From a virus: a stretch of DNA of 64,000 nt. Below are positions 24,698-42,968 of the stretch, in pieces (the stretch's first letter is position 1; every line of letters begins with the position of its first letter). Position numbers and translations under genes: made by a program. The DNA is taken from positions 1-64,000 of the IMG/VR virus record IMGVR_UViG_3300020599_000004; one strand, 5' to 3'. The notes beneath the pieces are model-generated. The model ran no database searches, was not told where the DNA came from, and worked only from the letters and a program-made list of their open reading frames with translations.

Positions 24698-25381
24698 TTA
24701 TGCCAGAGTCCGACGGTTTTCAGGCTTCATGCCTTCATTCAGCATGGCCACCACTTTCGCAGCCGCTTCGGCTTTGGTGATCTTGCCGTCCTTGTTCAGG
24801 TCCAGGCCCTTGTTCTGAAGGTAAGCCTTGGTGCCCTCGGTAAAGAGGTTGTAGTCATCCGGTTTACCGACAGCAGCGGGCCAAAGTACTTTCATGTACA
24901 AGTCGCTGACGTTGGAGATCTTACCAGCCAGAGGCTTGAAGTACAGGTACACGTACTCCAATTGTTGCTCGGCGGTCATTTTCACAAGGGCGTCGATGGT
25001 GGTGCCGATGTCCTGAGCCGCTGCGGCACCGAACTGAATCAGGCCGTAATACGGAGCACCGGCGCCGTTCTTGATGGTGGGGGAGAAGGTACGACCGGTC
25101 TCAAAGGCCATGACGGACATCAGTTCCGACGCGGCGTTCGGGTAGGTCATCTTCAGGTCGGCTGCCATCTTTTTCACACGTGCCACGAAAGCAGGCGAAA
25201 CTTTGGCCGACCAGGCGATATCGAGATTATCCACGGAAGTGCTCCTGGATTGCTTGGCATCGGCCAGTGCAGCCTGCCAAGCGGAGTTGGACACATTGCC
25301 CCAGAGGCCATCTACGATGCCTTTATAGTAACCGGCATCCTTAAGGTCCTGTTGCAGTTTCATCAGGGTAGCGGTGCTCAT
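24698..25381 (-). CDS. modular endolysin (PG-binding domain + lysozyme/transglycosylase-like domain)
   Basis: LQQDLKDAGYYKGIVDGLWG PG_binding_1 motif; FETG..YGLIQF catalytic segment; DLNKDGKITKAE EF-hand-like motif. Confidence 0.85.
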   Translation of the reverse strand: MSTATLMKLQQDLKDAGYYKGIVDGLWGNVSNSAWQAALADAKQSRSTSVDNLDIAWSAKVSPAFVARVKKMAADLKMTYPNAASELMSVMAFETGRTFSPTIKNGAGAPYYGLIQFGAAAAQDIGTTIDALVKMTAEQQLEYVYLYFKPLAGKISNVSDLYMKVLWPAAVGKPDDYNLFTEGTKAYLQNKGLDLNKDGKITKAEAAAKVVAMLNEGMKPENRRTLA

Positions 25382-26124: not shown

Positions 26125-26682
26125 TTATTTCTGGAGGATGTGGAAGTCGTTGATCAGGGACAGGCGCATCTCTTCCTTATCCGGCACCGTCTGCACGCTG
26201 TGCTGGATATAGGACGGGATGATCAGGACGTCACCGGCTCTGGGGCGGAAGTCGAAATTACCGAAGTACTCGTCGCGGATTTGCCGCGGGTAACCACGAC
26301 AGGCATTGCCACGCGGGTCGTAAGCAAGGAGCGTCGCGTTGGAGTCATGCGGGTAGAGGATGGTGGTGATAGACGAGTCGCCATGCCAATGGGCTCCGAG
26401 TTCTTGACCAGGTTTGAACCATTTGCCGAAGGTGTCGACCCGAAAGTCAGTCAACTCGAAACCCATGGCTGAAGCCATGAACTGTTTCACCAGGGGCGGC
26501 AGGATTTCATCACGCACTTGTTGCACGAGTGGCGTGGTGTCATCGACCTTGTGCGGTACACGGTCGTCATTGTGGGTAAGGCAGTGCAAAGCAATGACTT
26601 CAGAGGCCAGAGCCTCCAGATCGATCAGGTCCTTGACGTTAACCACTGCCAGGGAGGATTTCCACGGGGTGATGATTTGCAT
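26125..26682 (-). CDS. putative 2OG-Fe(II) oxygenase (PF13759/TIGR02466-like)
   Basis: AHWH..SITTILYP..DPR..PRAGDVLIIPSYIQHSV..R.SL pattern; start ATG 26682 or GTG 26694. Confidence 0.8.
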   Translation of the reverse strand: MQIITPWKSSLAVVNVKDLIDLEALASEVIALHCLTHNDDRVPHKVDDTTPLVQQVRDEILPPLVKQFMASAMGFELTDFRVDTFGKWFKPGQELGAHWHGDSSITTILYPHDSNATLLAYDPRGNACRGYPRQIRDEYFGNFDFRPRAGDVLIIPSYIQHSVQTVPDKEEMRLSLINDFHILQK

Positions 26683-26697
26683 GTTGAATCTCACTCA

Positions 26698-27261
26698 TTA
26701 AAGGTCGTGGCGCAGGTAGTACTCATGCAGCAGCGACAGCCGCACGTCTTCCTGCACGTAGGAAACGCTGTGTTGCAGATAGCTGGGGAAGATGTACAGC
26801 TCCCCTGCTTGAGGGGAGATGCTCACTGTTCCCATGAACTTGTTGCGAATCGGCTTCGGATAACCGCGCCCGGCATTGACCAGCGGACTGAAGAAGTTGA
26901 TCCCCGAGGGAGAGTCTCCCGGATAGAAAATCGCTGAGATACAGGAGCCGGGGTGATAGTGCGGGAACAGACCTTCGCCGGGCTGTATCCATTTGGCGTT
27001 GCACTCCACATCGATCTCAGGGATTTCATAACCCCACACGTCTTTGGCGTACTCCTGCACCGCCGGGGTGATGACGCTATTGCGCAGTCGCGTGATGGCA
27101 GGAACGAACTCTTCCCCTACGAACTGCTGGGCACCGTCTTCGTTGTTAGTCAACATGGACAGGTAGTGAATCTCTTCTGCGAGGTCGTGAAGACTGTACT
27201 CCCCACAATCTTGCACCTGTATTCGACCAATCTGTATCTTCCAGGGCTCGAGGTATTGCAC
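26698..27261 (-). CDS. putative 2OG-Fe(II) oxygenase (PF13759/TIGR02466-like)
   Basis: PHYH..CISAIFYP..PQAGELYIFPSYLQHSV..R.SL; paralogue of the adjacent gene. Confidence 0.8.
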   Translation of the reverse strand: MQYLEPWKIQIGRIQVQDCGEYSLHDLAEEIHYLSMLTNNEDGAQQFVGEEFVPAITRLRNSVITPAVQEYAKDVWGYEIPEIDVECNAKWIQPGEGLFPHYHPGSCISAIFYPGDSPSGINFFSPLVNAGRGYPKPIRNKFMGTVSISPQAGELYIFPSYLQHSVSYVQEDVRLSLLHEYYLRHDL

Positions 27262-27714
27262 TTAAGTGTTCTCCATCATCTTAAGAATGACATCTTGGAT
27301 ACCTTCTTCTGTGCACTCAAGGCGCCAGTACTCTGCTGTTTGAGGTGCCCACCCTTTATCGATCCAATCAGGGAGGTCGTCCAGCCGTTTCAGGATGGCG
27401 TTATAAGTGGCTGGATCAGCTTGGTAGGGCTTGAAGTACTGGTCATGTCCTAGAAACAAATCAGGATCACTTAGCGTTTCCAGAAGTGGAATGCCGTAAT
27501 GCTGTTCGTTTAAGGTGGCGTAGATAATGGCGACAGCGTAGCTCTTTGCCGGGTAGATCAACGGAAAGGTCGCTGCTTCGAAGTATTTCAGCGCATTCTC
27601 TACGAGCTCATCCTGGATAATGATCTCCATCTTGGAGAAATCATCGGGGTGATCCTGGACAAGGTCTTCGTAAAGACGCTGGTATTGCTTGTAGACAGGC
27701 TCACTCATCTTCAC
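27262..27714 (-). CDS. hypothetical protein in radical SAM cluster
   Basis: 150 aa; overlaps/abuts both neighbours; YPAKSYAVAIIYA segment. Confidence 0.7.
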   Translation of the reverse strand: MKMSEPVYKQYQRLYEDLVQDHPDDFSKMEIIIQDELVENALKYFEAATFPLIYPAKSYAVAIIYATLNEQHYGIPLLETLSDPDLFLGHDQYFKPYQADPATYNAILKRLDDLPDWIDKGWAPQTAEYWRLECTEEGIQDVILKMMENT

Positions 27715-28756
27715 GCACCGGATTTGTGATGGGAGTCAAGTCCCATCGGTTCTTCATGTCGAGCAGACACGTGTCCAGGCGGAGCGTGTCCATGATCAAC
27801 TGCGTATCGCCACGGGCGCAGTTGTCAAAGAAACAACATTCTCCACAATCGGGATGGTCAGCGTACACTTCCAAGTGTTTGTAGTACATCTGCTCCTTAA
27901 AGCTGATAAGCTCATCAGCATCCCAAGGGCGTGGGAACTTGAAAGGATCGATGAACATGGGAAACTTTTCCATGAGCACCGGGACGTAGTACAGTTCACC
28001 CTTGTGATAGGCGAACTCCAGGCTATCCGACACGGTAGGGATCAGGTAACGGTTGTACTGGGTGTCGTTACATTCTTTCATCCCGTCTGTGAATAGACGA
28101 AATTCCCGGAGGAACTTCTGTCGGATCATGATCTCTTCCAACCCAAGCCTGGAATGCGGGAAGTTGTACTCGACCAATTTAGGCACACCCAGGTCCAATT
28201 CATGGGCCAGGCGGTTGGTTTCCAGGTGGAAATCCTCCGCGGTGGCATTGGTCATGTTGATCCCCAAGTACAGAAGTTTGAACTCCGTCTCATGCAGATT
28301 GTCTCGGATGATTCCGATCCTTTCCCGCAGCATGTTGGTGAACTTCTCATTACGGATGTTCTTAAGTGTGGCTGGCACGATCAGGCGAAACTTCTTGCCT
28401 GCCATCAACTTGTCCACCTTCTGTGCAAAAGGCACTAAGTTGGTGTCGAACAACAGGGCGAGTGATACTGTCAGTGAATCATACCGAGCTGCCAACGCCT
28501 TGATCAGACTTCTATCCAGAATCCCCATCCCGGTCTTCGAGGAGATGATGTCTGTCGGACCGAGGGTGAACTCATGTAGGCGGAAACCGCGATCGCGCAT
28601 CGCATCCACCAACGCCAGGAGACGATCATCGTCTCCTGGGTGGATGAAGTCGCTGGTGAGGGTTTTGTCGATGGCGCAATCCTGACAACTGAACCCACAA
28701 CCTTTGAGAATCTCCAGCGTCAGGTTGAAGGCCTGATCCTTCTCATTCCCGAACAT
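27701..28756 (-). CDS. divergent radical SAM-like protein
   Basis: LEILKGCGFSCQDC (CxxxCxxC) near N-terminus; C-terminal CGECCFFDNC..C cluster. Confidence 0.7.
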   Translation of the reverse strand: MFGNEKDQAFNLTLEILKGCGFSCQDCAIDKTLTSDFIHPGDDDRLLALVDAMRDRGFRLHEFTLGPTDIISSKTGMGILDRSLIKALAARYDSLTVSLALLFDTNLVPFAQKVDKLMAGKKFRLIVPATLKNIRNEKFTNMLRERIGIIRDNLHETEFKLLYLGINMTNATAEDFHLETNRLAHELDLGVPKLVEYNFPHSRLGLEEIMIRQKFLREFRLFTDGMKECNDTQYNRYLIPTVSDSLEFAYHKGELYYVPVLMEKFPMFIDPFKFPRPWDADELISFKEQMYYKHLEVYADHPDCGECCFFDNCARGDTQLIMDTLRLDTCLLDMKNRWDLTPITNPVREDE

Positions 28757-29762
28757 GATCCAATCCCACCAAACAGTCGCGAATGCTCATCCGATGCATG
28801 ATACTGGTGATTCCTTTCTCACTGCAACTCCCCAGGTACGGACATTGCATGCACTGCGTATCCTTGAGGTAGTCCACAGAGCGCTCCAGAGCCTCGCTAC
28901 GCGCTTTTAGCAGCGATTGCATAGTCCAGGGGCGGGGAACAACGAAGTCGTCATCCAGGAAGGCGCAGTCGTCCTTAAGGAAGGGTACCCAGTAGAGGTT
29001 ACCGCCGGTGTACAGCAGGTTCATCATGGTTCCGGTGTCGTAATGCAGGTCAGGGTTCCTGCGACGCTCGTCATCGCCATCCAGATTCGAGTAGAACTGG
29101 GTGATGCGATGACTCATGCGTTTTATGCGCTCACCGAGCATGAGGTCCTTAACCGGAGCACGTCCATAGGGGATGTTCAGGATATCATCCTTGTCTACGG
29201 GGAACTCCACATCAAAGCCTTCACGCATCATGATGTCGAAATTCTCGTTTACCGTCTCATGTGTGCAGTTAACCACGAACCCTGCTTCGTTCAAGAAAGC
29301 GTCTTTCAAGTGCTCCTTCACGAAATTGAGCTTACGCACGATCATGTCAGAGAACTTGTGGTTCTTAAAGAAGTCAGGCGCTGCTGGCATAAGGAACCGG
29401 ATGGCTTTACCAGGTAGCGCGGCATCGATCTCTGCGCACATTTTGGCGTAGAGTGGCATCTTACGCTCCAGGAAGGCGGCATTGAACGTCACCTGATGGA
29501 AATGTTGCGCCATTTCCCGTACCACTGGGTTCTCCATCACCTCGGCGACATTGTCCGAGGACATGTAGTCAGTTGGGCCAATACCCAAGTCGAAGGCCAC
29601 ATAGCCTGCATCCATCATTTCTTGAATCAATGCGTAGAGCAGAGGGACGTCTTCGATCTCACCACCAAGCTCACGATCGATCATGCAGCCCGCACAGTGA
29701 TTTTTGCACCCTCTAAACAAATCGAGGGTTATCTCTAGCCGTTGACGATGACGAACTTTCAT
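28743..29762 (-). CDS. divergent radical SAM-like protein
   Basis: LDLFRGCKNHCAGC; C-terminal CMQCPYLGSC..C. Confidence 0.7.
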   Translation of the reverse strand: MKVRHRQRLEITLDLFRGCKNHCAGCMIDRELGGEIEDVPLLYALIQEMMDAGYVAFDLGIGPTDYMSSDNVAEVMENPVVREMAQHFHQVTFNAAFLERKMPLYAKMCAEIDAALPGKAIRFLMPAAPDFFKNHKFSDMIVRKLNFVKEHLKDAFLNEAGFVVNCTHETVNENFDIMMREGFDVEFPVDKDDILNIPYGRAPVKDLMLGERIKRMSHRITQFYSNLDGDDERRRNPDLHYDTGTMMNLLYTGGNLYWVPFLKDDCAFLDDDFVVPRPWTMQSLLKARSEALERSVDYLKDTQCMQCPYLGSCSEKGITSIMHRMSIRDCLVGLDHVRE

Positions 29763-30687
29763 CTTCGATCCACCTTACCAGCAGTCCATGGAAGCCGTTG
29801 CAGGAGTTCTCCAGGGATTTCACATCCCGAAGGTGCTCAGACAGGCAACGACCTTTGAATTCGCACGCACCGCAGAACGTGTTCGCCTCGACGCGCTGTC
29901 TTTCTTTTTCGCACCACGCCTCATAAGCCGCAACATTCTCCAAGGTCAGGAAGAATTCACGGTCATTAAGGTCAAATTCCAGTACAGCGAATTGACCTTG
30001 GGGGGTGATGTACAGATGATCATCGCTGTAGGCATTGCGCGTGCCTTCCACGGCTTTGATCACCTGAGATTCGTTCTCGAAATAGAACTTTCGTTCAGGG
30101 TGAGTGATCACTGCCCAGACGAAATCCTCGTATTCCTTAAACGTGACAGGCTGTTGGTTAGATTGGTTTTCCGAATAGGGCTTGATCTCCGCCGAATTCA
30201 GTTGACCTAGCATGTTCATCATGCTGACGTAGTCATCTGGCGTGACTTTGTCGAGGAATTCCCGACTGGCAAGAGTCAGGATGTTGTACCATCGAGGCAG
30301 AGTGAGCAGATTGTTGAAGACCAGCTCCCATTTCTCTCGTGCTGAGAAGTCAAACGACACCCCCAGTTCGAAATCCTCGTCGTCGGTGATCTCATTGGTG
30401 ACCGTGAGGTTGGTAATGAGCACCAAATCGGTAATCCCGTACTGGTGAAACATGGATTTCAGGGCCAGGAGGTACTTAGGGGGCAATAACAACACTTCCC
30501 CGCCGTAAATATCCACATGGGTGACGGTATAACCTGCGGCAATGACTTCCAATAACCTACGCTCAATCACTTCCAACGGCAATAGCTGTTTATCACTCAA
30601 TTGTTCGGGAGTGAGATAGCAAAAAGTGCATCTTAGGTTGCAATAGTACGTCGGGTTCAGACTAATGGTGAGCGGTTTCATACTCAA
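29713..30687 (-). CDS. radical SAM protein with partial SPASM-type Cys cluster
   Basis: LNPTYYCNLRCTFCY, IYGGEV; C-terminal CGACEFKGRC..C. Confidence 0.85.
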   Translation of the reverse strand: MSMKPLTISLNPTYYCNLRCTFCYLTPEQLSDKQLLPLEVIERRLLEVIAAGYTVTHVDIYGGEVLLLPPKYLLALKSMFHQYGITDLVLITNLTVTNEITDDEDFELGVSFDFSAREKWELVFNNLLTLPRWYNILTLASREFLDKVTPDDYVSMMNMLGQLNSAEIKPYSENQSNQQPVTFKEYEDFVWAVITHPERKFYFENESQVIKAVEGTRNAYSDDHLYITPQGQFAVLEFDLNDREFFLTLENVAAYEAWCEKERQRVEANTFCGACEFKGRCLSEHLRDVKSLENSCNGFHGLLVRWIEDESSSSSTARDNPRFV

Positions 30688-31778
30688 ACCCTAGCAATTA
30701 GCTGGACAGATTCATCCACATAGGGGGTAGGTTCGACCAAACCAGTCAAACCATTGATTTCGATGATGCGAGGAGCCAGGGATTTCATCTTCCGGCACTG
30801 ATGTTCGACCAATCCCATTTTTTTGGTGTCTGCAATGGTCTTCTTGCAGCCGTTGCAGATGGCAAACATCGGACATGTCCAGCACGCGTTCTTCATCGAC
30901 TGTAATTCGGGAGCGTTCTGCAATGGAGTGGCGATTTCGCCACGCATCTCCGCTTCGAAATCGATCCCGTACACCCGATCATCCCCGAATCCACCGCAGG
31001 AATAGTAACTCCCATCTGGTTGCAGGGTACGGATGTGACTATCGCAGTCACGGGAGAGTGGGCAGGTGGTATTGGCTTCCACCAAGCGACGCATCATCTG
31101 CTTGGTGTTGTATTCCCACTCGGCTAGCCCTGCATCGTAGATCTGGATGTAATGTTCGTAGATGTCGGCCTGGGTGAAGAATTTAGATTCAGCTCCCATT
31201 TCGACACCTCGCTTGACCACCGTGGGACCTGACGCCACCACGTGATTGATCTTTGCTTCCACACCCAGCCGTTTGGCTAATCTAACGGTGTCGAGGATGG
31301 TGTGTTCATTTTCCTTGTCGATAACAGCGATGAAGTCGGGTCTGTACCCTGCTACTTCATGGAGCAGTTCGGCACAGGCGAGGTAATCTTCCTCACTGAA
31401 GGGGGTTAGATCACCCTTAAGGCGTGCATTGCCGTACTGGAATGAAGTGGTAATGCCCACGCGGGGGTGTCTGAATAAATCCGCCCACATCTCGGGCTTC
31501 TTGTAGAAAGCCCAGAGATTTGTGGTGAAAGCCAGCGTAGCAGCGCAGTTGTGCTTCTCGAGGATGGCGATGATGTCCCAGTAATACTGGGGTGGCATCA
31601 TCAGTGGATCACCACCATTTAAGATAATGGTGCGGGTATCGGGGAAACGTTGGATGAAACGATCGACGTACTCCAGATCGAGTACGTCTTTAGGTTGCTC
31701 CGAAAGGACAGTACTGGAGCAGAACGTACAAGCAAACGAACACATGCTCGTGGGCTTCAGGATCAACGAATCAACCAT
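30684..31778 (-). CDS. radical SAM/SPASM protein
   Basis: ILKPTSMCSFACTFC, LNGGDPL; CPLSRDC..YSC..CWTCPMFAICNGC..C; GGAG RBS before ATG 31778. Confidence 0.88.
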   Translation of the reverse strand: MVDSLILKPTSMCSFACTFCSSTVLSEQPKDVLDLEYVDRFIQRFPDTRTIILNGGDPLMMPPQYYWDIIAILEKHNCAATLAFTTNLWAFYKKPEMWADLFRHPRVGITTSFQYGNARLKGDLTPFSEEDYLACAELLHEVAGYRPDFIAVIDKENEHTILDTVRLAKRLGVEAKINHVVASGPTVVKRGVEMGAESKFFTQADIYEHYIQIYDAGLAEWEYNTKQMMRRLVEANTTCPLSRDCDSHIRTLQPDGSYYSCGGFGDDRVYGIDFEAEMRGEIATPLQNAPELQSMKNACWTCPMFAICNGCKKTIADTKKMGLVEHQCRKMKSLAPRIIEINGLTGLVEPTPYVDESVQLIARV

Positions 31779-31857
31779 GGAAATAACTCCAGATAACACT
31801 GACCACGATCATCAGCCCAATGACTTTCCAATGTACTGTACGTTCTTTACTGCTCAT
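31771..31857 (-). CDS. 28-aa hydrophobic peptide (not in ORF track)
   Basis: GAGGAG RBS; MSSKERTVHWKVIGLMIVVSVIWSYFHG; stop overlaps the start of the next rSAM gene. Confidence 0.55.
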   Translation of the reverse strand: MSSKERTVHWKVIGLMIVVSVIWSYFHG

Positions 31858-32334: not shown

Positions 32335-33354
32335 CTAATCCTGCTTGACGATACGGTCGAACATCTCTTTTATCCGGCAGTCGCTGCTTAAACCATCGGC
32401 AATGAAGCTGTGATGGAGGAAGCAGCGCAGTCCGCACCGCCCGTAGTACTCACACGCTAGGCAGTTATATTTTTCAATGAATGCCATCTCTGCCTTAGCC
32501 TTGGCCGCCAACCCTTCTGCCTCATCAAGGATGGCGTTCTTCCCTGCCTCAGACCAACAGGTCGACACGATATTGTCCTTGTTGACAATCTTCGTGGAGC
32601 GACAGGTGGTCTCGTTGAACAGGTTTTCACGCCAATCCCTGACAGGCAGGGAGTTGGGGTATTTCTCATTCAGTAACAGGTAGAGGTCACTGATCATGTC
32701 CTCGTCCGGCTGAATGTACTCGTACATCGTGGAGGGGATGTAGTGGTCAAAGTACACAGTGAAGTTCTCGCACATCCACTGCATCTCTTTACCTTCCTTC
32801 CCCTCCAGGAAGGACTGGATGTTCTGCTTGGTGATCACGACGTTGACCGTGTCGATGTAGTTCTGCAACAGATGGAGATTGCGCAGGAACATCTGACGGT
32901 TGTTTTTATCGAATCGACCCGCAGGGTCGTACGAGGTAGCCAGATCAATGATACGGCCTGGGGCGTACTCTCGCAGCAATGCAATCAGACGCATAACCCG
33001 GTTGATGTTCTCGTACGCAAGGTTGGTACCCCACACGAGTTTGACCTCGGTGAAGTGATCCAACACACGTTTACCGGCTTCCAGGTAATGGTCGAACATC
33101 CCATCTGGGATATCGTCACTGAAGAGTTCACCGCCGGTGAAGTTCACTACGTACGGCAAGTCTCCTGGGGTTGAGTCCGTCAGTCGCTTTACCTTGAGCA
33201 GGATTTCCTCACCGGACATCCCCACACGGGAATCGTGGTCCTGATGACAGAACGAGCAGCTCATGTTACACTTCTCGAACAGGATCAGGTGGGCTTCCTT
33301 GTACTTGCCCTTCTTCTGGGCCAGGATATCTACCACGGGAATGAGATCTACCAC
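32335..33354 (-). CDS. radical SAM/SPASM-like protein
   Basis: LILFEKCNMSCSFCHQ, FTGGELF; C..C..CLACEYYGRCGLRC..C; GGAGGAG RBS before GTG. Confidence 0.85.
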   Translation of the reverse strand: MVDLIPVVDILAQKKGKYKEAHLILFEKCNMSCSFCHQDHDSRVGMSGEEILLKVKRLTDSTPGDLPYVVNFTGGELFSDDIPDGMFDHYLEAGKRVLDHFTEVKLVWGTNLAYENINRVMRLIALLREYAPGRIIDLATSYDPAGRFDKNNRQMFLRNLHLLQNYIDTVNVVITKQNIQSFLEGKEGKEMQWMCENFTVYFDHYIPSTMYEYIQPDEDMISDLYLLLNEKYPNSLPVRDWRENLFNETTCRSTKIVNKDNIVSTCWSEAGKNAILDEAEGLAAKAKAEMAFIEKYNCLACEYYGRCGLRCFLHHSFIADGLSSDCRIKEMFDRIVKQD

Positions 33355-34409
33355 GTCGACTCCTCCATCAGGTGCTTGAGTTCTTCTTCGTCTGCTCGCA
33401 AGGCGTAACGAATCAGGTTCTCGTCGTACTTGATGGCGTCCATGTGACCCAGCCGGAAACCGTCTTTGCCGTTATCGAAGATGAACCGCAGACGTTTCAG
33501 GCAGAGTTCAGGATCAGTCAAGTCGTCCGTGGATTCAAAGCAGGTCAACAGGTTACGGTTACGTTTCGCCGCGGGCTGATCCCCGCAGTCATCCAAAACC
33601 TTGATGATGCTCTTGACCAGATCGATCATCCACTCGTCTGGCATCTCATATTGGAGTACGTTGGGCAGACGCAACATGGGGTCCGTAAGGTGTCCCAGGT
33701 TCTGGCAGGCCTCAAAGGTGCTAGGCATGTCCAGCAGGGCGTCTAAATTGACGCCTGAGAGGTGCCAACGGGTATCGTCCATGATGACCCGCCCCCAATC
33801 GTCCATCGCGTCATGCGTGTTATTGAGGGCCGTACGGCGTTGCAGGTTCAGTAGGGTGTCAGGGATACTTCCCACAACGCCAAATGCCCGCAGTCGCATG
33901 ATCCGCCATTCCAGGGAAACCTCTTCAGGAGATTCCTCGTAGAGCTTGCGCAGAACAGGGATAATCGGCTCGTCAAAGGCATAAAGGCGCTCGACCACTT
34001 CACGCGTAATCGTCACATCGCGGGTATGGTCCGTGCGATTGTCATGAAGATTAATCGTGCTGGTGTCAAATGTCGCCTTGGCGCAAATGAAGAAGTACTT
34101 GAAATGCTCGTAGTCGATGCCAGGGAACAGGGCCTTTACCATGGCGGCAAAGAGCCGGGTGTAGGTGTCGTCATCAGCATAAATGAAAGTCTTCTGACCG
34201 AATGCAATGGCTCGGTCTATGGCATCACCAAATTCTTTCGGTGACATGGCATCCAGGCTGGTCGCATAACCCGCCTGGAAACCACGGACTCTCACCAGCG
34301 GGTGGTCCACATGTTGGAACCCGCTGTGCTTACTGATGTTGATCTGTGCAACTTCCACCTTGTTCCTGAACTCGGCTTCGACGTAGGTCTTACCGAAGAG
34401 ATGGAACAT
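33348..34409 (-). CDS. hypothetical protein in radical SAM cluster
   Basis: 353 aa; overlaps both neighbours. Confidence 0.75.
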   Translation of the reverse strand: MFHLFGKTYVEAEFRNKVEVAQINISKHSGFQHVDHPLVRVRGFQAGYATSLDAMSPKEFGDAIDRAIAFGQKTFIYADDDTYTRLFAAMVKALFPGIDYEHFKYFFICAKATFDTSTINLHDNRTDHTRDVTITREVVERLYAFDEPIIPVLRKLYEESPEEVSLEWRIMRLRAFGVVGSIPDTLLNLQRRTALNNTHDAMDDWGRVIMDDTRWHLSGVNLDALLDMPSTFEACQNLGHLTDPMLRLPNVLQYEMPDEWMIDLVKSIIKVLDDCGDQPAAKRNRNLLTCFESTDDLTDPELCLKRLRFIFDNGKDGFRLGHMDAIKYDENLIRYALRADEEELKHLMEESTW

Positions 34410-35143: not shown

Positions 35144-35716
35144 TTAGCGACGACCGCGGTTACCGTGGCAGTTGTTGTGGCAGCTGTAGTGGCACACGGT
35201 GTTGGTCAGTGTGCCCACCACTGGACCACCCGCCAGGCTCCACCAGCGGTTGTACATGTTGTTGCAGAGATTGGAGACGTCAGCCTGCTCGACCGAGGTA
35301 CCTGCTGGGATCGCGCCCACCAGGGTGCCTGTGCCACCCACACCCGAGGAGAAGTAACCGATGGCATTGCCGTCGTATTGCGTAGTCGTCCAGGGTGCGG
35401 TGTTGTTGACGTTCTGCACAGGTGGGTTGTAGCCGTTGCCGTTGAAGTAGATCACGATGCGTTTGCGGCACAATACGCCAGAAATCGAGGCCACATACGA
35501 GACCGTATCGTTCACGGCTTGGGCACGGATGCTACCATTGCACCAATCCTGACCGGTGTGGGCACGTCCCAGCGGATTCGGGACATTACCGCCGAACCAA
35601 CCCGGCAGAGACCCACTGGGGTAGTTGTTAGCCCCCCAGGCTACCTGCGCGTTGATCTTGTCAATCAGGAGGCCGTTGAGCAGGTTTACGGCATCCACTT
35701 TACTGATGTTGGCCAT
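35144..35716 (-). CDS. N/G/T-rich protein with C-terminal (CHxx)3-RGRR tail; candidate radical SAM substrate/virion protein
   Basis: ends TVCHYSCHNNCHGNRGRR; starts 3 nt after a rSAM/SPASM gene. Confidence 0.8.
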   Translation of the reverse strand: MANISKVDAVNLLNGLLIDKINAQVAWGANNYPSGSLPGWFGGNVPNPLGRAHTGQDWCNGSIRAQAVNDTVSYVASISGVLCRKRIVIYFNGNGYNPPVQNVNNTAPWTTTQYDGNAIGYFSSGVGGTGTLVGAIPAGTSVEQADVSNLCNNMYNRWWSLAGGPVVGTLTNTVCHYSCHNNCHGNRGRR

Positions 35717-35719
35717 ATG

Positions 35720-36754
35720 CTACACCTTGATAATCAAATTTGACTGGGCGCTGCGTCCCGAGAGATACCGAAGGGTATTCTTAAGTCCACCACACCGTCC
35801 GTTCTGCCAGGGTAACCGATGGCAGTCTCCACCACAAAGGTCAAAGACATCGCAATGTAAACAACCTGGCTTAAAGTTCAGCTCACAGGCGATCTCATTG
35901 ATGCGACCATCGGACGCCAGAAACTCCAGAGCCCCCTGGGACAAGTGGGCGTGCTTGTGTTCTGTCGCCATGTTAGGGCAACCACCTAACCAACCGTTGG
36001 AGTTGATCGTCACCAGGTTCTGCTCACAATTGCGGCAGTTGGTGTCGACTTTGACGATACCCAGTTCCAACTTCTGCTTGATGGTGTCTAACGTAGTGAT
36101 CTTGTAATTGGGCTGACGCTCGAAGTACCGCTTGTACAAGGCCAGATACCAGTCGTCTTGCTCTACGTTGTCCGGAAAGACGTCTGGGTTGCACTCGGCG
36201 TTGCCTCCTAAGGTAAGGCGCTCCAGCGCCACCTCATCGATCTCCAGTTGGTCCAGTTGGTCTAAGAACCAGTCTGGTGTGGAAGCCACTAGAGGTCGAG
36301 AAACAGATACCTTCAGGTGGATCGTAACCCCAGCACGTTTGAGCATGCCAAGGTTACGTTTCCACAGATCGACTTGTTTTTGGTTGGACCATCTGATCCA
36401 AGGGTCCCAACTGGTCCCGATGTGACCATCGAAATGAACCAGGATGGTGTCGATAATGGCATCAGTCAACTTGAATGTTAAGTTACTGTTGGCACACATG
36501 GAAACATTCGGGTTGCTCGCAAAGTGATCGATGAAGGCGTTGATCTTGGCGAGCGGTACCAGAAAAGGCTCACCCCCGTGAAACTCAATGTGGTATTGCT
36601 CATCTTCGGGGTATTGGGCCATAAAGTCTTTGACCCAGGAAGCCGTTGCCTCCGGGTCGAATTGGGTCTTATCCCCCTGCTTGCCATTGGTGAAGCAATG
36701 GTCACAGTTCAGGTTGCAAGTGCCCGTGGTCTTAACGTAGATCGTCTTCATCAA
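35720..36754 (-). CDS. radical SAM/SPASM maturase
   Basis: YVKTTGTCNLNCDHCF, FHGGEPFL; CRNC..GGCPN..CLHCDVFDLCGGDC..C full SPASM-like set. Confidence 0.9.
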   Translation of the reverse strand: MMKTIYVKTTGTCNLNCDHCFTNGKQGDKTQFDPEATASWVKDFMAQYPEDEQYHIEFHGGEPFLVPLAKINAFIDHFASNPNVSMCANSNLTFKLTDAIIDTILVHFDGHIGTSWDPWIRWSNQKQVDLWKRNLGMLKRAGVTIHLKVSVSRPLVASTPDWFLDQLDQLEIDEVALERLTLGGNAECNPDVFPDNVEQDDWYLALYKRYFERQPNYKITTLDTIKQKLELGIVKVDTNCRNCEQNLVTINSNGWLGGCPNMATEHKHAHLSQGALEFLASDGRINEIACELNFKPGCLHCDVFDLCGGDCHRLPWQNGRCGGLKNTLRYLSGRSAQSNLIIKV

Positions 36755-37275
36755 AGCTTGTCCACGATGAACTTCTCCAGACCGAAGGAGATCATCAGGG
36801 AATCCTCGTGGTTTATCGCCTGGTGCTTCGTGTTGGCCGGGATGAAGAGGGATTCGCCGGGCTTGAGGGTGTATTCACCGTCAAGGGTTCTGAAGGTCTT
36901 GTTGCCCTTCACCATCAAGACCAGGACATCGTCCGGGTCGGTGTGCATCGGGAAGGACAAGGATTCTGCGGGTGAGATGAACAGATGGGCGGTCACCGGA
37001 CCATCGTGTTCAAAGTAATGCTTCAGGAATTCGCAGCATGCGTACAATTCTGCGGAGAGTTTCTCGTAATGCTCGATCTTGATGGGGCAGTCGATGTGAG
37101 CAATCACATCGGAGCAGCTATGGGCTGTTTCACACCCTGCTTCTCCGAGGACGATCTTGACCATGCCTTCTTCGTAGGCATAGAGACTCTCCAGTACCTG
37201 ACGGTGGTGCATCTGCGCCTCAGTCAAGTGAAAGTTGGCAAAGTCTTGATGCTTTCTCACAGCACTGCGGTCCAT
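36751..37275 (-). CDS. JmjC/cupin_4-type Fe(II)/2OG oxygenase
   Basis: AHLFISP..SFPMHTDPDDVLVLMVKGNK..LKPGESLFIPANTKHQA (HxD..K..H); GGAG RBS before ATG 37275. Confidence 0.82.
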   Translation of the reverse strand: MDRSAVRKHQDFANFHLTEAQMHHRQVLESLYAYEEGMVKIVLGEAGCETAHSCSDVIAHIDCPIKIEHYEKLSAELYACCEFLKHYFEHDGPVTAHLFISPAESLSFPMHTDPDDVLVLMVKGNKTFRTLDGEYTLKPGESLFIPANTKHQAINHEDSLMISFGLEKFIVDKL

Positions 37276-37367
37276 TTCCTGTCTCCAAAAGTAGGGGTAG
37301 GCCACATCAATGACCTACCCCTTACTTTCTTACTGCCTATGCCCAGTTCCCTAGCAATAAAAAATTG

Positions 37368-38291
37368 TCAGATAAAGTCCTTAGCCCTACGGCGAGCCGT
37401 GGATGCACTGATACCCAATGCTTCAGCTGCTGCACTCGCATGACTGTACGTCACCCCATCGATCACCAGAGGTTTTCTACTCCTGGCTATCGCCGCATCG
37501 ATCTTACCTCGCACACTGGCCTTATAGTCAGGGTCTGCCCACTTAGCCCGCATGGCTGCCCCATGCCGTTCTCTAAACCCCTCTATCTCCCATGTGGCAG
37601 CACCAGATTTCTTCTGGTTGGCAGCATACTCAGGATCTTCCCAGAGCCTCTTGGTGGCGCTGGATAACTTCTTCAGATACTCAGGGTCAGCTGCCAAGCG
37701 TTTCCCAGTTTCGACCCGTCGGGCTTTCACCGCAGGATCGGCGTAGATGTCCTTGATTTTGGATCGGAAGTCAGGGTCCTGCCATTGCGCCTTAGCTGCA
37801 TCGCTCAGCTTCTTACGGGTGTCTTCGTGAGCAGGGCGATACTCCTCGACCATGTGCCGCTGATTTACGCAGTAGGGGTCATTAAACAGCAGATCAACCA
37901 ATCGCTGCTCGACGGTCCTGGCTTCGCCTTCAGTGTTAGTGAAGAGGTAGATCACATCCGGCAACGCCCGTCTGCGGTCATACTCGCACTGGAGTTTCTG
38001 GTTGTAATGCTTGTTGGCCTTTAAGAAGTAAAGGTGCGTACGAGATCGTACCTGTAGGTAATAAGTGCTGCCGATGTAGAACTTACCACTGTTCCTGAAA
38101 TAGAGCACGTAAACCCCACATCGATCACCGGAGTACCTAATTCCACTGAGAGCAGGTCCCACTCCAGCAAACGCCTCAGGGTAGTTACAGTACTCCTCGA
38201 TCTCGTCATCCACCCAGCACCACAGCAGCCGGTGGAACCCGGCTGCTGTCCATTGCTTCAGATTTTCACCGCAATGCATCAGTTCTAACAT
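37368..38291 (-). mobile_element. free-standing GIY-YIG homing endonuclease with NUMOD3-like repeats and C-terminal HTH
   Basis: GVYVLY..KFYIGST..R..H; repeated W.DP.[FY] helices; KPLVIDGVTY..A..ALGIS. Confidence 0.85.
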
Positions 38292-38362: not shown

Positions 38363-39811
38363 TTACTGCCACTGTGGTGGCCAGAAAGCGCGCCAACCAC
38401 CAGATACTGCCACGTACGCCACTCCACCAGTCACGTAGACGGAACCATCCACGCCGACAGTGTTCTTCGGCGTATAGCGCGCATCGTGGTCACCGCTGTT
38501 GACGTGGTCGTACATGCCACCTGCCGTGAGCAGGATCGCGTCGCTGTTCTGGTTACGCAGTCGCGTGATGGCATTGGGGATGTTCCCCAAACCGACCTGA
38601 GCCTTAGTGACGTTGTGCGGGTTGTTGGTGTTGTTGATGTGACTCGTCAGGGAATTACCCACCAACTGAGCGATGGCTTGAGCCGTACGCAGCGGGGTCA
38701 TGAAGCGATCGTTCGCTGTACCGGCTTGGGCTTCGGCTTGTGTTGCGGTCAGGAAGTTATCGACATTCCCCAAACCGACCTGAGCCTTGGTCGTCTGGTG
38801 GGGGTTGTTCATGTCCTGCAAGTGAGCTGTCAGCTGGTTACCCACAAGCTGGGTAATGGCCGTTTTGGTCAGAGCAGGGGTCATGAACTTGTCGGTGGCA
38901 GTCCCAGCCTGTGCATCGGCGGTGGTGGCTGTGGCGAAGTTATCCACGTTACCCAGGTTGACTTGGGCTTTGGTTACCTTGTGCGGATTGTTAAAGTCCG
39001 ACAAGTGAGGTGACAAGACACTGTTGGCAATGGCCGTTGCTGTCAGACCCGTCAAGTACGGCGTCATGTACTTGTTGTTGACTGTGGCTGCCTGTGCTTC
39101 AGCGTTGGTGGCGATGCCGAAGTTCTGTACCAGACCCAGTCCCACCTGAGCAGCCGTCACCTGGTGAGGGTTGGAAGTGTCATTGACGTGCTGGTTCAGC
39201 TGGCTCTGGAAGCCATCGATCTGTGCCTGCACCTGATCGATCAGGTACTGGAACTGTTGGCGCAGCTCATCGTGCGATGCGGCATCGCCCTGGAGGATGG
39301 CAACACGGATGTACTCCAGCTGCTCACCGATGTACTCCCAGCCGTAGGTATCCCCCAGATCGTGCAGGTGAGGGGTCGGCGGATAGAGGGCAGGTTTGCC
39401 GATGATGTCGCCCCAGTGCACGGGACGTTCATCCAGGTCCAGAGCCTCGAGCATCTCTTGCAGAGCGTAGACCGACCAGGAGAACTCACCCCCCACCACC
39501 TGATAGGTGATCAGGACTTCGTCACCCACGGTCTGGTCGGTAACGTAGACCACCGAGCAGACGTCCAGACCGGTACGAATGGAAGCTTCTTGGTAGGGTT
39601 GCAGCAGCAGGTACTGATCAACAGGTCTGAGGACTTCCCCAGTGTCGGCACGAGTGACCACAACTGAGTCCGTGTAGAAGGGACCACAGTTGGGCACGAA
39701 TGCCCGCTCTTTCGTCGAACCGATCGTGTGGGGTTCGTTGATGACAAGGTTAGTCGGAGACTTTCCCGTCAGATCAAGCGGGTATTTGAAAAGAAGAGGC
39801 TTGGTACCCAT
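38363..39811 (-). CDS. tail fibre protein with four NPH repeats
   Basis: YPLDLTGKSPTNL N-terminus; 4x H..D/N.NPH.VT.AQV.LG ~61-aa repeats. Confidence 0.8.
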   Translation of the reverse strand: MGTKPLLFKYPLDLTGKSPTNLVINEPHTIGSTKERAFVPNCGPFYTDSVVVTRADTGEVLRPVDQYLLLQPYQEASIRTGLDVCSVVYVTDQTVGDEVLITYQVVGGEFSWSVYALQEMLEALDLDERPVHWGDIIGKPALYPPTPHLHDLGDTYGWEYIGEQLEYIRVAILQGDAASHDELRQQFQYLIDQVQAQIDGFQSQLNQHVNDTSNPHQVTAAQVGLGLVQNFGIATNAEAQAATVNNKYMTPYLTGLTATAIANSVLSPHLSDFNNPHKVTKAQVNLGNVDNFATATTADAQAGTATDKFMTPALTKTAITQLVGNQLTAHLQDMNNPHQTTKAQVGLGNVDNFLTATQAEAQAGTANDRFMTPLRTAQAIAQLVGNSLTSHINNTNNPHNVTKAQVGLGNIPNAITRLRNQNSDAILLTAGGMYDHVNSGDHDARYTPKNTVGVDGSVYVTGGVAYVAVSGGWRAFWPPQWQ

Positions 39812-40076: not shown

Positions 40077-42968
40077 TCAGGACTTCCATCCAGGTGCCAG
40101 AGTTGCCGGTTGAGTCGGATTACCCGAAGTCGCCGGGATAGCCATCCCCACCGGAGTCTGGGAGATCCGGTAGTTACCCAACCTCGATACCTTGTCGATC
40201 TGCATGGTGCTAATCTGCGTAGCACCCGTGATGATCTTACCGATGTACATCCGGGTATCGGACTCAGCCTGCTCAGTCGTGGTAATCTGATAGGCAGGCG
40301 TGCTACCGGACCAGTTCACGTAGACGTAGAAGGTGGAGTTGGATGGATCAGCTTGAACTTCGGTAAGATCGAAGGAAGCAGGCGCCAATTGGTCGTACTT
40401 ACCTTTCATCACCACTGGCGTGGGGTCGGTAAAGTACACCATCCATCCTGCGGGGACTTGTTGGGACATCACCACGATCTTATCGGCACGTGTCTTAGCA
40501 GGCCAGGTGATAAAGCTGGCTTTATCGGTGGCATTGAGTTGGAATTCCAACTTGGTGTAGGCATCGGTGTCTTCGTCACCGTTACGCAGAGTACCGATGC
40601 CTACACCCGGCAGTGCGAAGTAGTGAGCAGGGGTGTTGTCGTAGTCATACTCCAGGTAGGCAAACCCTTCTATGGAGCCGTCGGTGTTTACGAAGAGCTT
40701 AAAGCTGTTGATCAGTAATCCCGAGCCTGGTCGGATGATGGCGCCCACACCGGTGAGGGTGATGGCGTAACCACCTGCCATTTTCGTGTAGATGCTGCCA
40801 GCGACCTGACTGGAGTTGGCCAACGTCATGGATGTATTGGTGGTAACCACACTGGAGTATTTACCTGCCAGAGTGACCAGACCGATGGAGTTGATCGTCC
40901 CTGTACGGGCATTGACTGAACAGGTGAAGACAGCCGCGCACTGCATCCCATCGGGCTGGATGGCCCAGAGGATGAAGATACAAGGTGCGGCAGCGTCGAC
41001 AGGGACGATCAGCTGACCTGCGGTGGCTTTAGGGGTACCCGTATAACCTGCCGCTGTGTACGCAGCTGCCTTCGCATTCGCAAAAGCCGTAGCATCCACG
41101 GTGACCATAGAGCCCACAACTTGGTTCTCATCGATGCTGCCGGGTCGTGACAGGTTACCGTCCCAGAAGATGGTGCACCGATTAGCCGTGATGTTACCCG
41201 ACTGGTCGATTTCGGTCAGGAATATCCCGTCATTTACATGACCTCCCACATCCGTGGACAGCTTACGATATGCCTTGGGTGAGTAACCAGGGATATCCGC
41301 ACCGCTGAGTGACTTGTACATGAACGTGGGAGATTCCCCGTTGTCCTTGTACTTGCCCACTGCACGTTTTAGGGTACCGGTGCCTTTGGAGATGGCGGTT
41401 AGATAGCCATTGGGCAGCAGACTGACTGCCTGGAACGCGCTCATAAAGGGACTCGGACCAATGGCTGCGGTGTCCTTGGTCTCTGTGGAGCTGACAAGCC
41501 CATTAGCTGGGGTGACGTCGAAGGGCTTGGTAAAGTTGGCCAGTTTGTATCGAACGATGGAATAAGTACCACCCGATAAGTTGGATGGGTAGACCATCAA
41601 CACGGTGCCATCTTCGGCTATCAGGTAGTTCTTGCCGCCGTAGTAATAGCTAGAGTTGCTGATCCAGCGGTTACTGTCGGAGTATGCCTGGTTGGAAAGG
41701 ATCATACTCGTCTTGCTGGCATTGTAGGTGATCTCACACCCGCCTTGGTACGCAGCATCCACCACCGCCGTCTTTGCCACTGGGTCGATGACCAGGCTTA
41801 GCATCATCTCGGTGTTAGCAAAGCTTGTAGCATCCGGGTAGATTCGGTACAGACCAAACAACGCCGTACGCAGCTTCCCGGTGGCAGCATCGACCTCGGT
41901 GTGGGTCATGAGACCGTTACGACTGCTGCTGAAGAAGTCCGTCTTATAAGGACTGGCAGGGTGGTGGAACACGGCGTCATCTGCGACGTTCTCGGACGAC
42001 AGCATATCGGCCAGACGGATGTTGGTCTGAGCGACCTTGTTCGACCGAACACCCGTGACATCCCATCCCGTGACAGGATTCGCCGCCGTGATGGTCCCTG
42101 CGATAATGTCCGACACCGCAATGTTGGCCACGACCTGTACTTCAAATGGCGTCGATCCAGGGTAATTGCCCTGGCGACCATCCAGTGCCAGCAGTACATA
42201 GACCCGATCGCCAACCAGTACAGGCTCTGCCAGTCGCCAACCACCCGAGACAGTGGGATTGATTTCCGACAATGGGATCAGTGCACCAATGTGCTTACTG
42301 TCATCCAGGGTGCCATTGCACAGCGCCACGAACATTTGTCGGTTCGTGTTGGCGCCTTCGTCAGAGATTTCCCCTAACAGCACACCCTTGTTACCTGCAT
42401 AGACCACCCGAACCTGTTTACCATCCGGGACGAAGGCAGGGTGGTAACGGCGGTTGGTGTAGATAGCGTTGAGTGGCGCAGTCAGCGCATTCTTCATGTA
42501 CGTATAGTACGCTCCAATCGACGCGCCATCGGTGGCATTACGCAGCCAGGTAAGTGTGCCGTCGCGCTCCAGTACCAGCGGCTGGGACATGTAACCGGTG
42601 CCGCCTAGCGTTGTACCCGACTCGTACGATCCTCCTACGCCAATGGGCAGGTAATCCAGCGTACCAAAGCGCGAGAACGGCAGAATGCCCGACGGCAGTT
42701 TCTGTGCAAACAGCGCATTGGATTCGGTCTTGTTGTAAGCACCGAGGGTGGCAGCGGTAACGTTGTGGGGATTGTTCTTGTTGGCGATATGGACATCGGC
42801 CAGGTTCTTGGCCGCTGCCGGGTAACTGGCCGCAGCAGCGCCACCCAGCGCCTGCGCATCGTCCGCTATGGACGAGGACGCAGGCTTCTTGGTCATGACA
42901 GTCTTCACCGCCGCGAAGAAGTCATCCATGGCATCCTTTACGGCCTGGTACTGATCCAAAACACTCAT
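40077..42968 (-). CDS. large tail fibre/tail-tip paralogue (phiKZ gp131-family-like)
   Basis: 963 aa; shares N-terminal LPSGILPFSRFG..LERDG and C-terminal GW.VYFT..YRIS..P with neighbours. Confidence 0.8.
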   Translation of the reverse strand: MSVLDQYQAVKDAMDDFFAAVKTVMTKKPASSSIADDAQALGGAAAASYPAAAKNLADVHIANKNNPHNVTAATLGAYNKTESNALFAQKLPSGILPFSRFGTLDYLPIGVGGSYESGTTLGGTGYMSQPLVLERDGTLTWLRNATDGASIGAYYTYMKNALTAPLNAIYTNRRYHPAFVPDGKQVRVVYAGNKGVLLGEISDEGANTNRQMFVALCNGTLDDSKHIGALIPLSEINPTVSGGWRLAEPVLVGDRVYVLLALDGRQGNYPGSTPFEVQVVANIAVSDIIAGTITAANPVTGWDVTGVRSNKVAQTNIRLADMLSSENVADDAVFHHPASPYKTDFFSSSRNGLMTHTEVDAATGKLRTALFGLYRIYPDATSFANTEMMLSLVIDPVAKTAVVDAAYQGGCEITYNASKTSMILSNQAYSDSNRWISNSSYYYGGKNYLIAEDGTVLMVYPSNLSGGTYSIVRYKLANFTKPFDVTPANGLVSSTETKDTAAIGPSPFMSAFQAVSLLPNGYLTAISKGTGTLKRAVGKYKDNGESPTFMYKSLSGADIPGYSPKAYRKLSTDVGGHVNDGIFLTEIDQSGNITANRCTIFWDGNLSRPGSIDENQVVGSMVTVDATAFANAKAAAYTAAGYTGTPKATAGQLIVPVDAAAPCIFILWAIQPDGMQCAAVFTCSVNARTGTINSIGLVTLAGKYSSVVTTNTSMTLANSSQVAGSIYTKMAGGYAITLTGVGAIIRPGSGLLINSFKLFVNTDGSIEGFAYLEYDYDNTPAHYFALPGVGIGTLRNGDEDTDAYTKLEFQLNATDKASFITWPAKTRADKIVVMSQQVPAGWMVYFTDPTPVVMKGKYDQLAPASFDLTEVQADPSNSTFYVYVNWSGSTPAYQITTTEQAESDTRMYIGKIITGATQISTMQIDKVSRLGNYRISQTPVGMAIPATSGNPTQPATLAPGWKS

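Follow-up and report, generated by a model that had tools for sequence, protein, structure and literature searches.

To our knowledge, maturation by radical SAM (rSAM) enzymes has so far been known from small peptides, from a few enzymes that are themselves matured and, since 2026, from one bacterial defence effector. This effector belongs to the HXS antiphage system (Li et al., Nat Commun 2026; PMC13128918), in which HxsA, a folded HxS-repeat protein, is matured by the rSAM enzymes HxsB and HxsC together with HxsD, with a mass change of +8 Da on one unit (PMC13128918). Triceptides contain Omega1-X2-X3 units in which an aromatic ring is linked to the C-beta of X3, and examples with His include HAA, HTK, and HNR (PMC11499958).

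Here we describe a viral gene cassette that combines a protein ending in tandem Cys-His-x-Ser/Asn units with six rSAM genes. The analyzed window comprises 64,000 nt (positions 1 to 64,000) of IMG/VR record IMGVR_UViG_3300020599_000004. We regard it as fairly likely that this protein, hereafter called the tail protein, is a dedicated, protein-sized substrate of the multi-rSAM cassette, that its tail is modified, and that the product joins the particle near the fibres. In the literature, the cassette appears only in gene lists (annotated as cupin, Fe-S oxidoreductase, and radical SAM), and we found no paper describing it.

A tail protein encoded within a radical SAM cassette

The features of the locus are collected in Table 1.

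Table 1 Features of the cassette and its surroundings (positions refer to the window).
Feature	Position	Strand	Evidence or remark
Tail-protein gene (190 aa, stop codon included)	35144..35716	-	ORF and translation; 17 close homologues; 541 profile matches
16-residue tail CHYS-CHNN-CHGN-RGRR, candidate modification site	35147..35194	-	Invariant C/H/R; logo; AF2 disorder
Predicted folded alpha/beta body, residues 1-174, last strand closed by TNTV	35195..35716	-	AF2 and hhalign
rSAM1, radical SAM/SPASM, translationally coupled to the tail protein	35720..36754	-	CNLNCDHC at residue 13, GGEP, 8 C-terminal Cys
Cupin/JmjC-type Fe(II) oxygenase, heads the cassette	36751..37305	-	Pfam JmjC_2 and Cupin_2 over cut-off
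unkA, 247 aa	34390..35133	-	phrog_20767; follows the tail gene immediately in the long-form arrangement, which is dominant
unkB, 353 aa, in the jumbo-phage form of the cassette	33348..34409	-	Syntenic in DT01 and many loci
rSAM2	32335..33354	-	CNMSCSFC and C-terminal Cys cluster; phrog_1802; orthologues across loci
rSAM3, most conserved cassette enzyme	30684..31799	-	Pfam Radical_SAM, 53 bits
rSAM4	29713..30687	-	Pfam Radical_SAM, 41 bits; orthologues at E about 1e-75 to 1e-93
rSAM5 and rSAM6, divergent accessory paralogues	28743-29762 and 27701-28756	-	CKNHCAGC and CGFSCQDC; C-terminal Cys clusters
Two 2OG-Fe(II) oxygenases, end of the cassette	26698-27261 and 26125-26694	-	PF13759, 42.5 and 31.7 bits (cut-off 27)
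Two genes for tail-fibre-like virion proteins, immediately upstream	38363-39811 and 40077-42968	-	PHROG virion structural and tail fibre families

The original prediction of a 190-aa ORF that starts 3 nt after an rSAM/SPASM gene and ends in three Cys-His units plus RGRR was borne out by the ORF and its translation: nt 35147-35194 of ORF 35144-35716 encode the tail CHYSCHNNCHGNRGRR, followed by a TAA stop. The ATG lies 3 nt past the TAG of the rSAM1 gene (35720-36754) and is preceded by a Shine-Dalgarno-like AAGGTG site, and the gap from the tail-gene stop to the next gene start is 10 nt. The protein is rich in Asn (13.2%), Gly (13.2%), Val (9.5%), and Thr (6.3%), and its gene is single-copy in the 127.8-kb IMG/VR record, which is estimated to be 47% complete. 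Neither the tail protein nor unkA or unkB had a match in Pfam or NCBIfam, and PHROGs yielded an unnamed family only. An ESM Atlas search of the tail protein returned unnamed viral clusters only, plus one weak lead to PF27846; in this nearby cluster (score 0.79, below the reliable range), 19% of the members carry Pfam 38.1 PF27846 'tSAM_targ_Cxxx_rpt'.

All six rSAM proteins of the window contain an N-terminal CxxxCxxC motif and C-terminal Cys clusters. rSAM5 and rSAM6 had no Pfam match, and their counterparts in Pseudomonas phage pPa_SNUABM_DT01 (DT01) carry a radical SAM annotation. For rSAM1, an alignment of 45 sequences showed C13, C17, C20, and G60-G61-E62-P63 to be invariant, together with eight C-terminal Cys (240, 243, 259, 298, 301, 307, 311, and 321). 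The protein thus has what defines the radical SAM/SPASM superfamily, namely CxxxCxxC, GGE(P), and a seven/eight-Cys SPASM domain; it matched Pfam Fer4_12 with 25.3 bits (cut-off 22) and the SPASM model TIGR04085 with 23.1 bits, just below the cut-off of 27. Judged by its sequence, rSAM1 is a complete SPASM enzyme without an N-terminal recognition domain (RRE-less). Its top NCBIfam models, all far under cut-off, are PapB, YhhB, FxsB, anSME, AmcB, and DynA. The AF2 model of unkA reached a pLDDT of 87.2, and a search with this fold gave no Foldseek match in the PDB, the best Z being 4.6 for residues 3-59 only.

A gene for a GIY-YIG/I-TevI-like homing endonuclease (window 37368-38291, minus strand) lies between the fibre gene and the cupin gene. 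In phage FLC6, the GIY-YIG nuclease gp69 is encoded just ahead of the cupin gp70, and a homologue was seen in the RSF1 locus L101.

The tail is almost invariant and widespread

Among 17 homologues with 29-66% identity, the residues T, N, T, V, C, H, C, H, C, H, R, G, R, and R are invariant, at a mean column identity of 49%. A profile built from these homologues gave 541 matches among the representatives of clusters at 50% identity (E<=0.001; 168 at E<=1e-10), and about 145 of the best 150 of these 541 matches bear the same C-terminal tail. We then derived a logo from 304 distinct proteins chosen solely by the positions of C, H, and R. Position 4 of the units is S90/N9, S72/N26, and S80/A12/N8 % for units 1, 2, and 3, and position 3 is free, with G42/S26/T10/N7/C5/A4 % in the last unit. 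V, I, or L precedes the first Cys in 80% of the proteins, and the tail ends in R-[G83/S11]-R-R. As expected in the original prediction, C, H, RGRR, and small residues at the third position are conserved, both in the homologue alignments and in the logo.

The number of repeats varies among representatives (2, 3, 4, or 2x3 units), and tail variants include a duplicated triple unit, four units, two units, and Cys-Tyr replacing Cys-His. Four CHxS units with GDGPGxGGGV replacing RGRR, or a doubled triple unit, occur in the variants P0059, P0070, P0123, and P0133 and in P0029 and L046. One of the tails with a duplicated triple unit comes from the assembly of the cultured Dysosmobacter segnis BX15, where its contig measures 4.3 kb.

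At the DNA level, a degenerate pattern covering the tail and stop codon matched at least 120 IMG/VR viral contigs as well as 32 bacterial or archaeal contigs among GTDB species genomes, with 1 false match among ~180. A GTDB protein-pattern scan with TNTVCH..C found no relative, whereas this broader DNA pattern did. As a sequence pattern, the tail motif is far beyond chance. Cultured carriers are DT01, the Ralstonia/Burkholderia phages of the RSL2, RSF1, FLC, and S13 group, Agrobacterium phage Atu_ph07, and Sinorhizobium phage Phosso; searching cultured phages by tblastn with the 257-aa and 127-aa marine variants gave no match. By hhalign, homology to gp170 of Atu_ph07 covers the last 59 residues (97.4%) and homology to ORF068 of RSL2 the last 107 columns (98.1%). 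Since the homology extends into the body, the conserved module comprises a helix, a strand, and the tail rather than the tail alone.

CX3CH is a rare variant of the haem c motif, and the stretches CHYSCH and CHNNCH fit it, so that two overlapping C-x3-C-H stretches might bind haem c covalently. We consider this highly improbable: haem attachment is periplasmic and phage assembly cytoplasmic, no obvious N-terminal signal peptide was seen in the sequence, the two motifs share residues, and haem binding would not account for the invariant Ser/Asn and RGRR.

The same enzymes accompany the tail across loci

To describe the gene neighbourhood, the window proteins were compared with the ORFs of loci fetched solely via the tail protein or the tail pattern. 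At least one rSAM gene was present in 150 of 157 loci, the exceptions being mostly short or cut loci; in locus L165, 8 kb upstream of the tail gene contain no rSAM gene. An rSAM1 orthologue lies directly upstream of the tail gene in 82 of the 122 loci with room for it, unkA directly downstream in 84 of 124, and the cupin directly upstream of rSAM1 in most loci. In cultured phages, the tail gene adjoins rSAM1 in all 15 records that contain rSAM1. The dominant order (cupin, rSAM1, tail protein, unkA, (unkB), rSAM2, rSAM3, rSAM4, (rSAM5, rSAM6)) is common to the window, DT01, RSL2, and Atu_ph07. rSAM3 orthologues in distant loci reach E-values of 1e-115 to 1e-139, and the copy number of rSAM5/6-like genes differs between phages. 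In 28 loci, the cassette has homologues of the 482-aa fibre-like protein at its flank. Pfam, NCBIfam, and PHROG searches identified no protease or transporter within the cassette.

In a second architecture, two tandem tail proteins of ~127 aa are followed by several rSAM5/6-like genes, and where these loci reach far enough, the cupin and rSAM1-4 orthologues follow too. Because both architectures carry these genes, we define the core as one cupin, four orthologous rSAMs, and the tail protein; unkA is also counted in this set. The tandem ~127-aa paralogues, ~380 bp apart, were seen in L061, L084, L093, L142, and about 25 other IMG/VR loci on mid-sized contigs, followed by up to six rSAM5/6-like genes.

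Since the tail is almost invariant and encoded with the same set of rSAMs, its modification is very probable, and we found no paper that describes the chemistry.

Another multi-rSAM block was observed behind fibre-like genes in phages RP31 and RP12. RP31 ORF070 (L181 24173-24550, 125 aa), which precedes the rSAM block, ends in HTHYSPDGSY and was rejected as a member of the tail-protein family; the RP12 copy of this type of protein resembles the tail protein of the window weakly in structure (BFVD rank 7, probability 0.20). Possibly, the RP31/RP12 block represents an analogous system whose tail differs.

The body is predicted to be folded and the tail disordered

An AF2 model of the tail protein, based on a 17-row alignment, shows a folded alpha/beta body (mean pLDDT 76.9, pTM 0.71) whose final strand ends in TNTV, followed by a disordered tail (pLDDT 42 in the last block). 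The suggestion of a folded, long N-terminal part in place of a short leader therefore agrees with the prediction (pLDDT ~77 for the body vs 42 for the tail). Searching with the body, Foldseek found nothing in the PDB at E<=0.001, a wide VIA-align search matched no solved fold (best Z 4.7), and BFVD returned family members only. For a complex of rSAM1 (alignment A3), three 4Fe-4S clusters, SAM, and the tail protein (A1), the prediction score was 0.02 (mark 0.32), which speaks neither for nor against such a complex.

AF2 cannot model metals, so a disordered tail is compatible with an unmodified metal or Fe-S site, in which the three Cys-His pairs, perhaps pooled in an oligomer, would bind Zn, Fe, or a cluster, comparable to the His ladders that hold iron in phage fibre tips. 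In that case, the rSAMs would act elsewhere, and the tail protein would serve as a structural or redox partner. The invariant residues are indeed classic metal ligands spaced i, i+4, and the genes adjoin fibre genes. Such a site leaves unexplained why position 4 is almost invariably Ser/Asn, why the tail ends in R-x-R-R, why the number of units varies, and why the tail travels with the same four rSAMs, and we consider it improbable.

Comparison with described maturation systems

We compared the locus with the systems to which the original prediction had linked it, and with two further groups of SPASM enzymes. The tail shares with CXXX-repeat systems a Cys at every fourth residue and a location beside a radical SAM gene. 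Membership was not supported: the target model TIGR04114 (18 positions, cut-off 20 bits) had no match in the record at E<=1 and none to the window tail protein and seven relatives at E<=10, and rSAM1 scored 17.6 bits against the maturase model TIGR04115 (cut-off 350), over model positions 2-65 only.

The likeness to HXS lies in a folded protein whose tandem His-x-Ser units are rich in basic residues and in co-encoded rSAMs with a small helper (PMC13128918); the tail protein likewise has three H-x-[S/N] units on a body predicted to be folded. By analogy, HxsA is its closest counterpart among the proteins compared. HXS differs, however, in being a bacterial defence system with two rSAMs and no oxygenases, and HxsA carries a signal sequence and a peptidoglycan-binding domain, lacks Cys, and has its five repeats away from the C-terminus. 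At the level of protein families, membership was not supported: TIGR03979 (HxsA; cut-off 121.65) did not match the tail gene, its only match in the record being 13.3 bits at 25280-25375, and HxsB (TIGR03978) and HxsC (TIGR03977) reached 27.2 bits on rSAM1 (vs 370) and 20.6 bits on rSAM3 (vs 267.9), respectively.

His triceptides (HaaB, HtkB, YhhB) resemble the tail in their repeated units with His as the aromatic residue, a free middle residue, and formation by rSAM/SPASM enzymes (PMC11499958). The His-x-Ser/Asn units with their variable middle residue fit the Omega1-X2-X3 definition, and YhhB is the second-best model for rSAM1, matching the N-terminus only. In contrast to the tail protein, these are short leader-core substrates with no invariant Cys before the His and no RGRR, and they depend on one maturase rather than four to six. 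Assignment to the triceptide maturases (3-CyFE) found no support in the bit scores for YhhB (50.2 vs 445), FxsB (41 vs 370), GrrM/OscB (23.9 vs 310), and AmcB (37.2 vs 425).

Like rSAM1, anSME is an RRE-less rSAM/SPASM enzyme, and it acts on a full-length protein (sulfatase); moreover, the last unit C-H-x-[S/N]-R has the Cys/Arg spacing of C-x-P/A-x-R. It differs in that the first two tail units lack the Arg and that the cassette has several enzymes instead of one. We rejected an anSME/sulfatase pair, as position 3 of the last unit is mostly G/S/T/N, with Ala in 4%, and TIGR03942 reached 39.6 bits vs 349. PapB (NF047865), which makes Cys thioethers on repeated short motifs, is the best curated model for rSAM1 over its full length (residues 5-313), but at 51 bits against a cut-off of 340; the C-x3-D acceptor motif is absent and the substrate here would be a folded protein.

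CXXX-repeat systems, HXS, and triceptides offer nothing comparable to the invariant Cys preceding each His, the RxRR end, the four-enzyme core, or the setting in phages and predators. Since no cassette enzyme reaches the cut-off of any characterised maturase family, their chemistry cannot be transferred to the tail. What stands of the original prediction is a tail protein that would serve as substrate of the adjacent rSAMs, a role favoured by co-occurrence, translational coupling, and the invariant tail; its assignment to CXXX-repeat, HXS, or triceptide families does not.

Detection of a distant homologue in a phage particle preparation

The homologue gp170 of Atu_ph07 (L004 10044-10934), with the tail CHSSCHASCHNSRSRR, has a computed mass of 31,894 Da. 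This fits the 31.89 kDa listed for gp170 in the published particle proteome and shows that the numbering agrees with the table, where the protein was identified with 8 unique peptides and 35.16% coverage (Supplementary Table S5, PMC6102473). The same table does not list the cupin gp172, the rSAMs gp171, gp168, and gp165, or the unkA protein gp169 of Atu_ph07 (PMC6102473). gp170 was present in gel slices 1-9 with peak abundance in slice 1, which also contains a 127-kDa protein, unlike other ~30-kDa proteins, which peak in slices 7-8 (PMC6102473). It therefore seems to run as a high-mass species, which hints at an SDS-stable form. Because the gel loading buffer lists no reductant (PMC6102473), both disulfides and other covalent links may account for it.

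We rate the virion evidence as moderate, because the particles were purified by PEG only, the table includes non-structural proteins (RecA-like, SSB, and ribonucleotide reductase; PMC6102473), and the similarity of gp170 is limited to the last ~60 residues. RSL2 ORF068 carries no virion-protein mark in RefSeq. For the tail protein of the window, virion membership would follow by homology, the particle data being those of the distant homologue gp170 only.

These data also bear on the unmodified metal or Fe-S site. The top-slice peak in a sample whose buffer has no listed reductant could reflect thiol-dependent oligomers, as such a site would allow; the presence of the protein in a particle list from which the enzymes are absent argues against a role as an enzyme cofactor.

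A further alternative is that the protein is a large leader or scaffold from which the modified tail is cut off as a small RiPP or cofactor of the PQQ, mycofactocin, or pearlin type, active during infection. The core would lie at the C-terminus, where mycofactocin and PQQ-type precursors have theirs; the cassette has many tailoring enzymes, and SPASM enzymes typically make such products. Against this stand the lack of a recognised protease or transporter in the cassette, the conserved body with its predicted fold, the detection of the gp170 body in particles, and the position of the cassette in the late structural module, and we judge this alternative to be unlikely, somewhat more so than the metal site.

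Proposed maturation of the tail protein

Returning to a tail protein that is modified by its own cassette, several observations speak for this reading. The tail is invariant across very divergent bodies; it combines Ser/Asn at position 4 with a free position 3, which is the Omega1-X2-X3 cross-link pattern (PMC11499958); and its repeat number varies, as in multi-core RiPP substrates. Loci found via the tail alone contained rSAM genes in 150 of 157 cases, the best models for rSAM1 are peptide or protein maturases, and AF2 predicts a folded body with a disordered tail. Finally, gp170 was identified in particles while the neighbouring cupin, rSAMs, and unkA are not listed, and HxsA sets a precedent of a folded HxS-repeat protein matured by two rSAMs (PMC13128918).

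The mechanism that we infer extends to the tail modification itself, the responsible enzymes, the chemistry (cyclophanes, thioethers, and hydroxylation), and the location of the protein. The folded body (residues 1-174) would dock or act as a scaffold and present a flexible (Cys-His-x-Ser/Asn)x3-Arg-Gly-Arg-Arg tail, on which rSAM1-4, and perhaps the oxygenases, would act after translation, with unkA as a putative helper. The most likely products would be intramolecular cross-links in the tail. Candidate links are a bond from His-C2 to the C-beta of the Ser/Asn two positions further along, of the type made in His triceptides (-2 Da per unit), and/or thioethers of Cys, and oxygenase steps on His or Arg may also occur. 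Once finished, the protein would be incorporated into the particle, its probable place being the fibre/adsorption apparatus or the vicinity of it.

If this reading is right, it would be the first instance in which a virus applies an rSAM pathway to a particle protein of its own, and it may explain the conserved, ignored 'Fe-S oxidoreductase' gene block in RSL2, FLC6, S13, DT01, and Atu_ph07. Hundreds of phage lineages and some predatory bacteria retain the cassette, at an expense of 8-12 kb of genome. As the 16-residue substrate is sharply defined and the candidate enzymes can be co-expressed, the chemistry is directly testable.

The cassette in predatory bacteria

About 20 of the 32 GTDB contigs with the tail pattern belong to Bdellovibrionota MAGs, and a tail match was found in 9 of 301 sampled Bdellovibrionota genomes. 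It is possible, if doubtful, that phages and predatory Bdellovibrionota share an rSAM pathway that turns the Cys-His tail of a small protein of the fibre module into a cross-linked, possibly metal-holding or covalently anchoring end-piece of a cell-attack apparatus. Were this true, it would define a new class of enzymatically matured virion proteins with chemistry not seen in known RiPPs, in which four rSAMs and Fe oxygenases would together modify Cys, His, Ser/Asn, and Arg.

On a 1.29-Mb Halobacteriovoraceae contig (L189, G001:C1:297500-317400), the cassette is complete, with rSAM4, rSAM3, rSAM2, the tail protein, unkA, a second rSAM2-like gene, rSAM1, and the cupin. It is flanked by housekeeping genes, for a serine dehydratase and an Mrp/NUBPL ATPase, and lies near a gene for a 413-aa protein with a Peptidase_S74 fibre-chaperone domain (L189 ORF 2265-3506, minus strand). 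This cassette looks chromosomal rather than prophage-borne and is again fibre-linked; the cassette is therefore not restricted to viruses. S74 proteins similar to the Halobacteriovoraceae one were also observed in loci L044 and L162.
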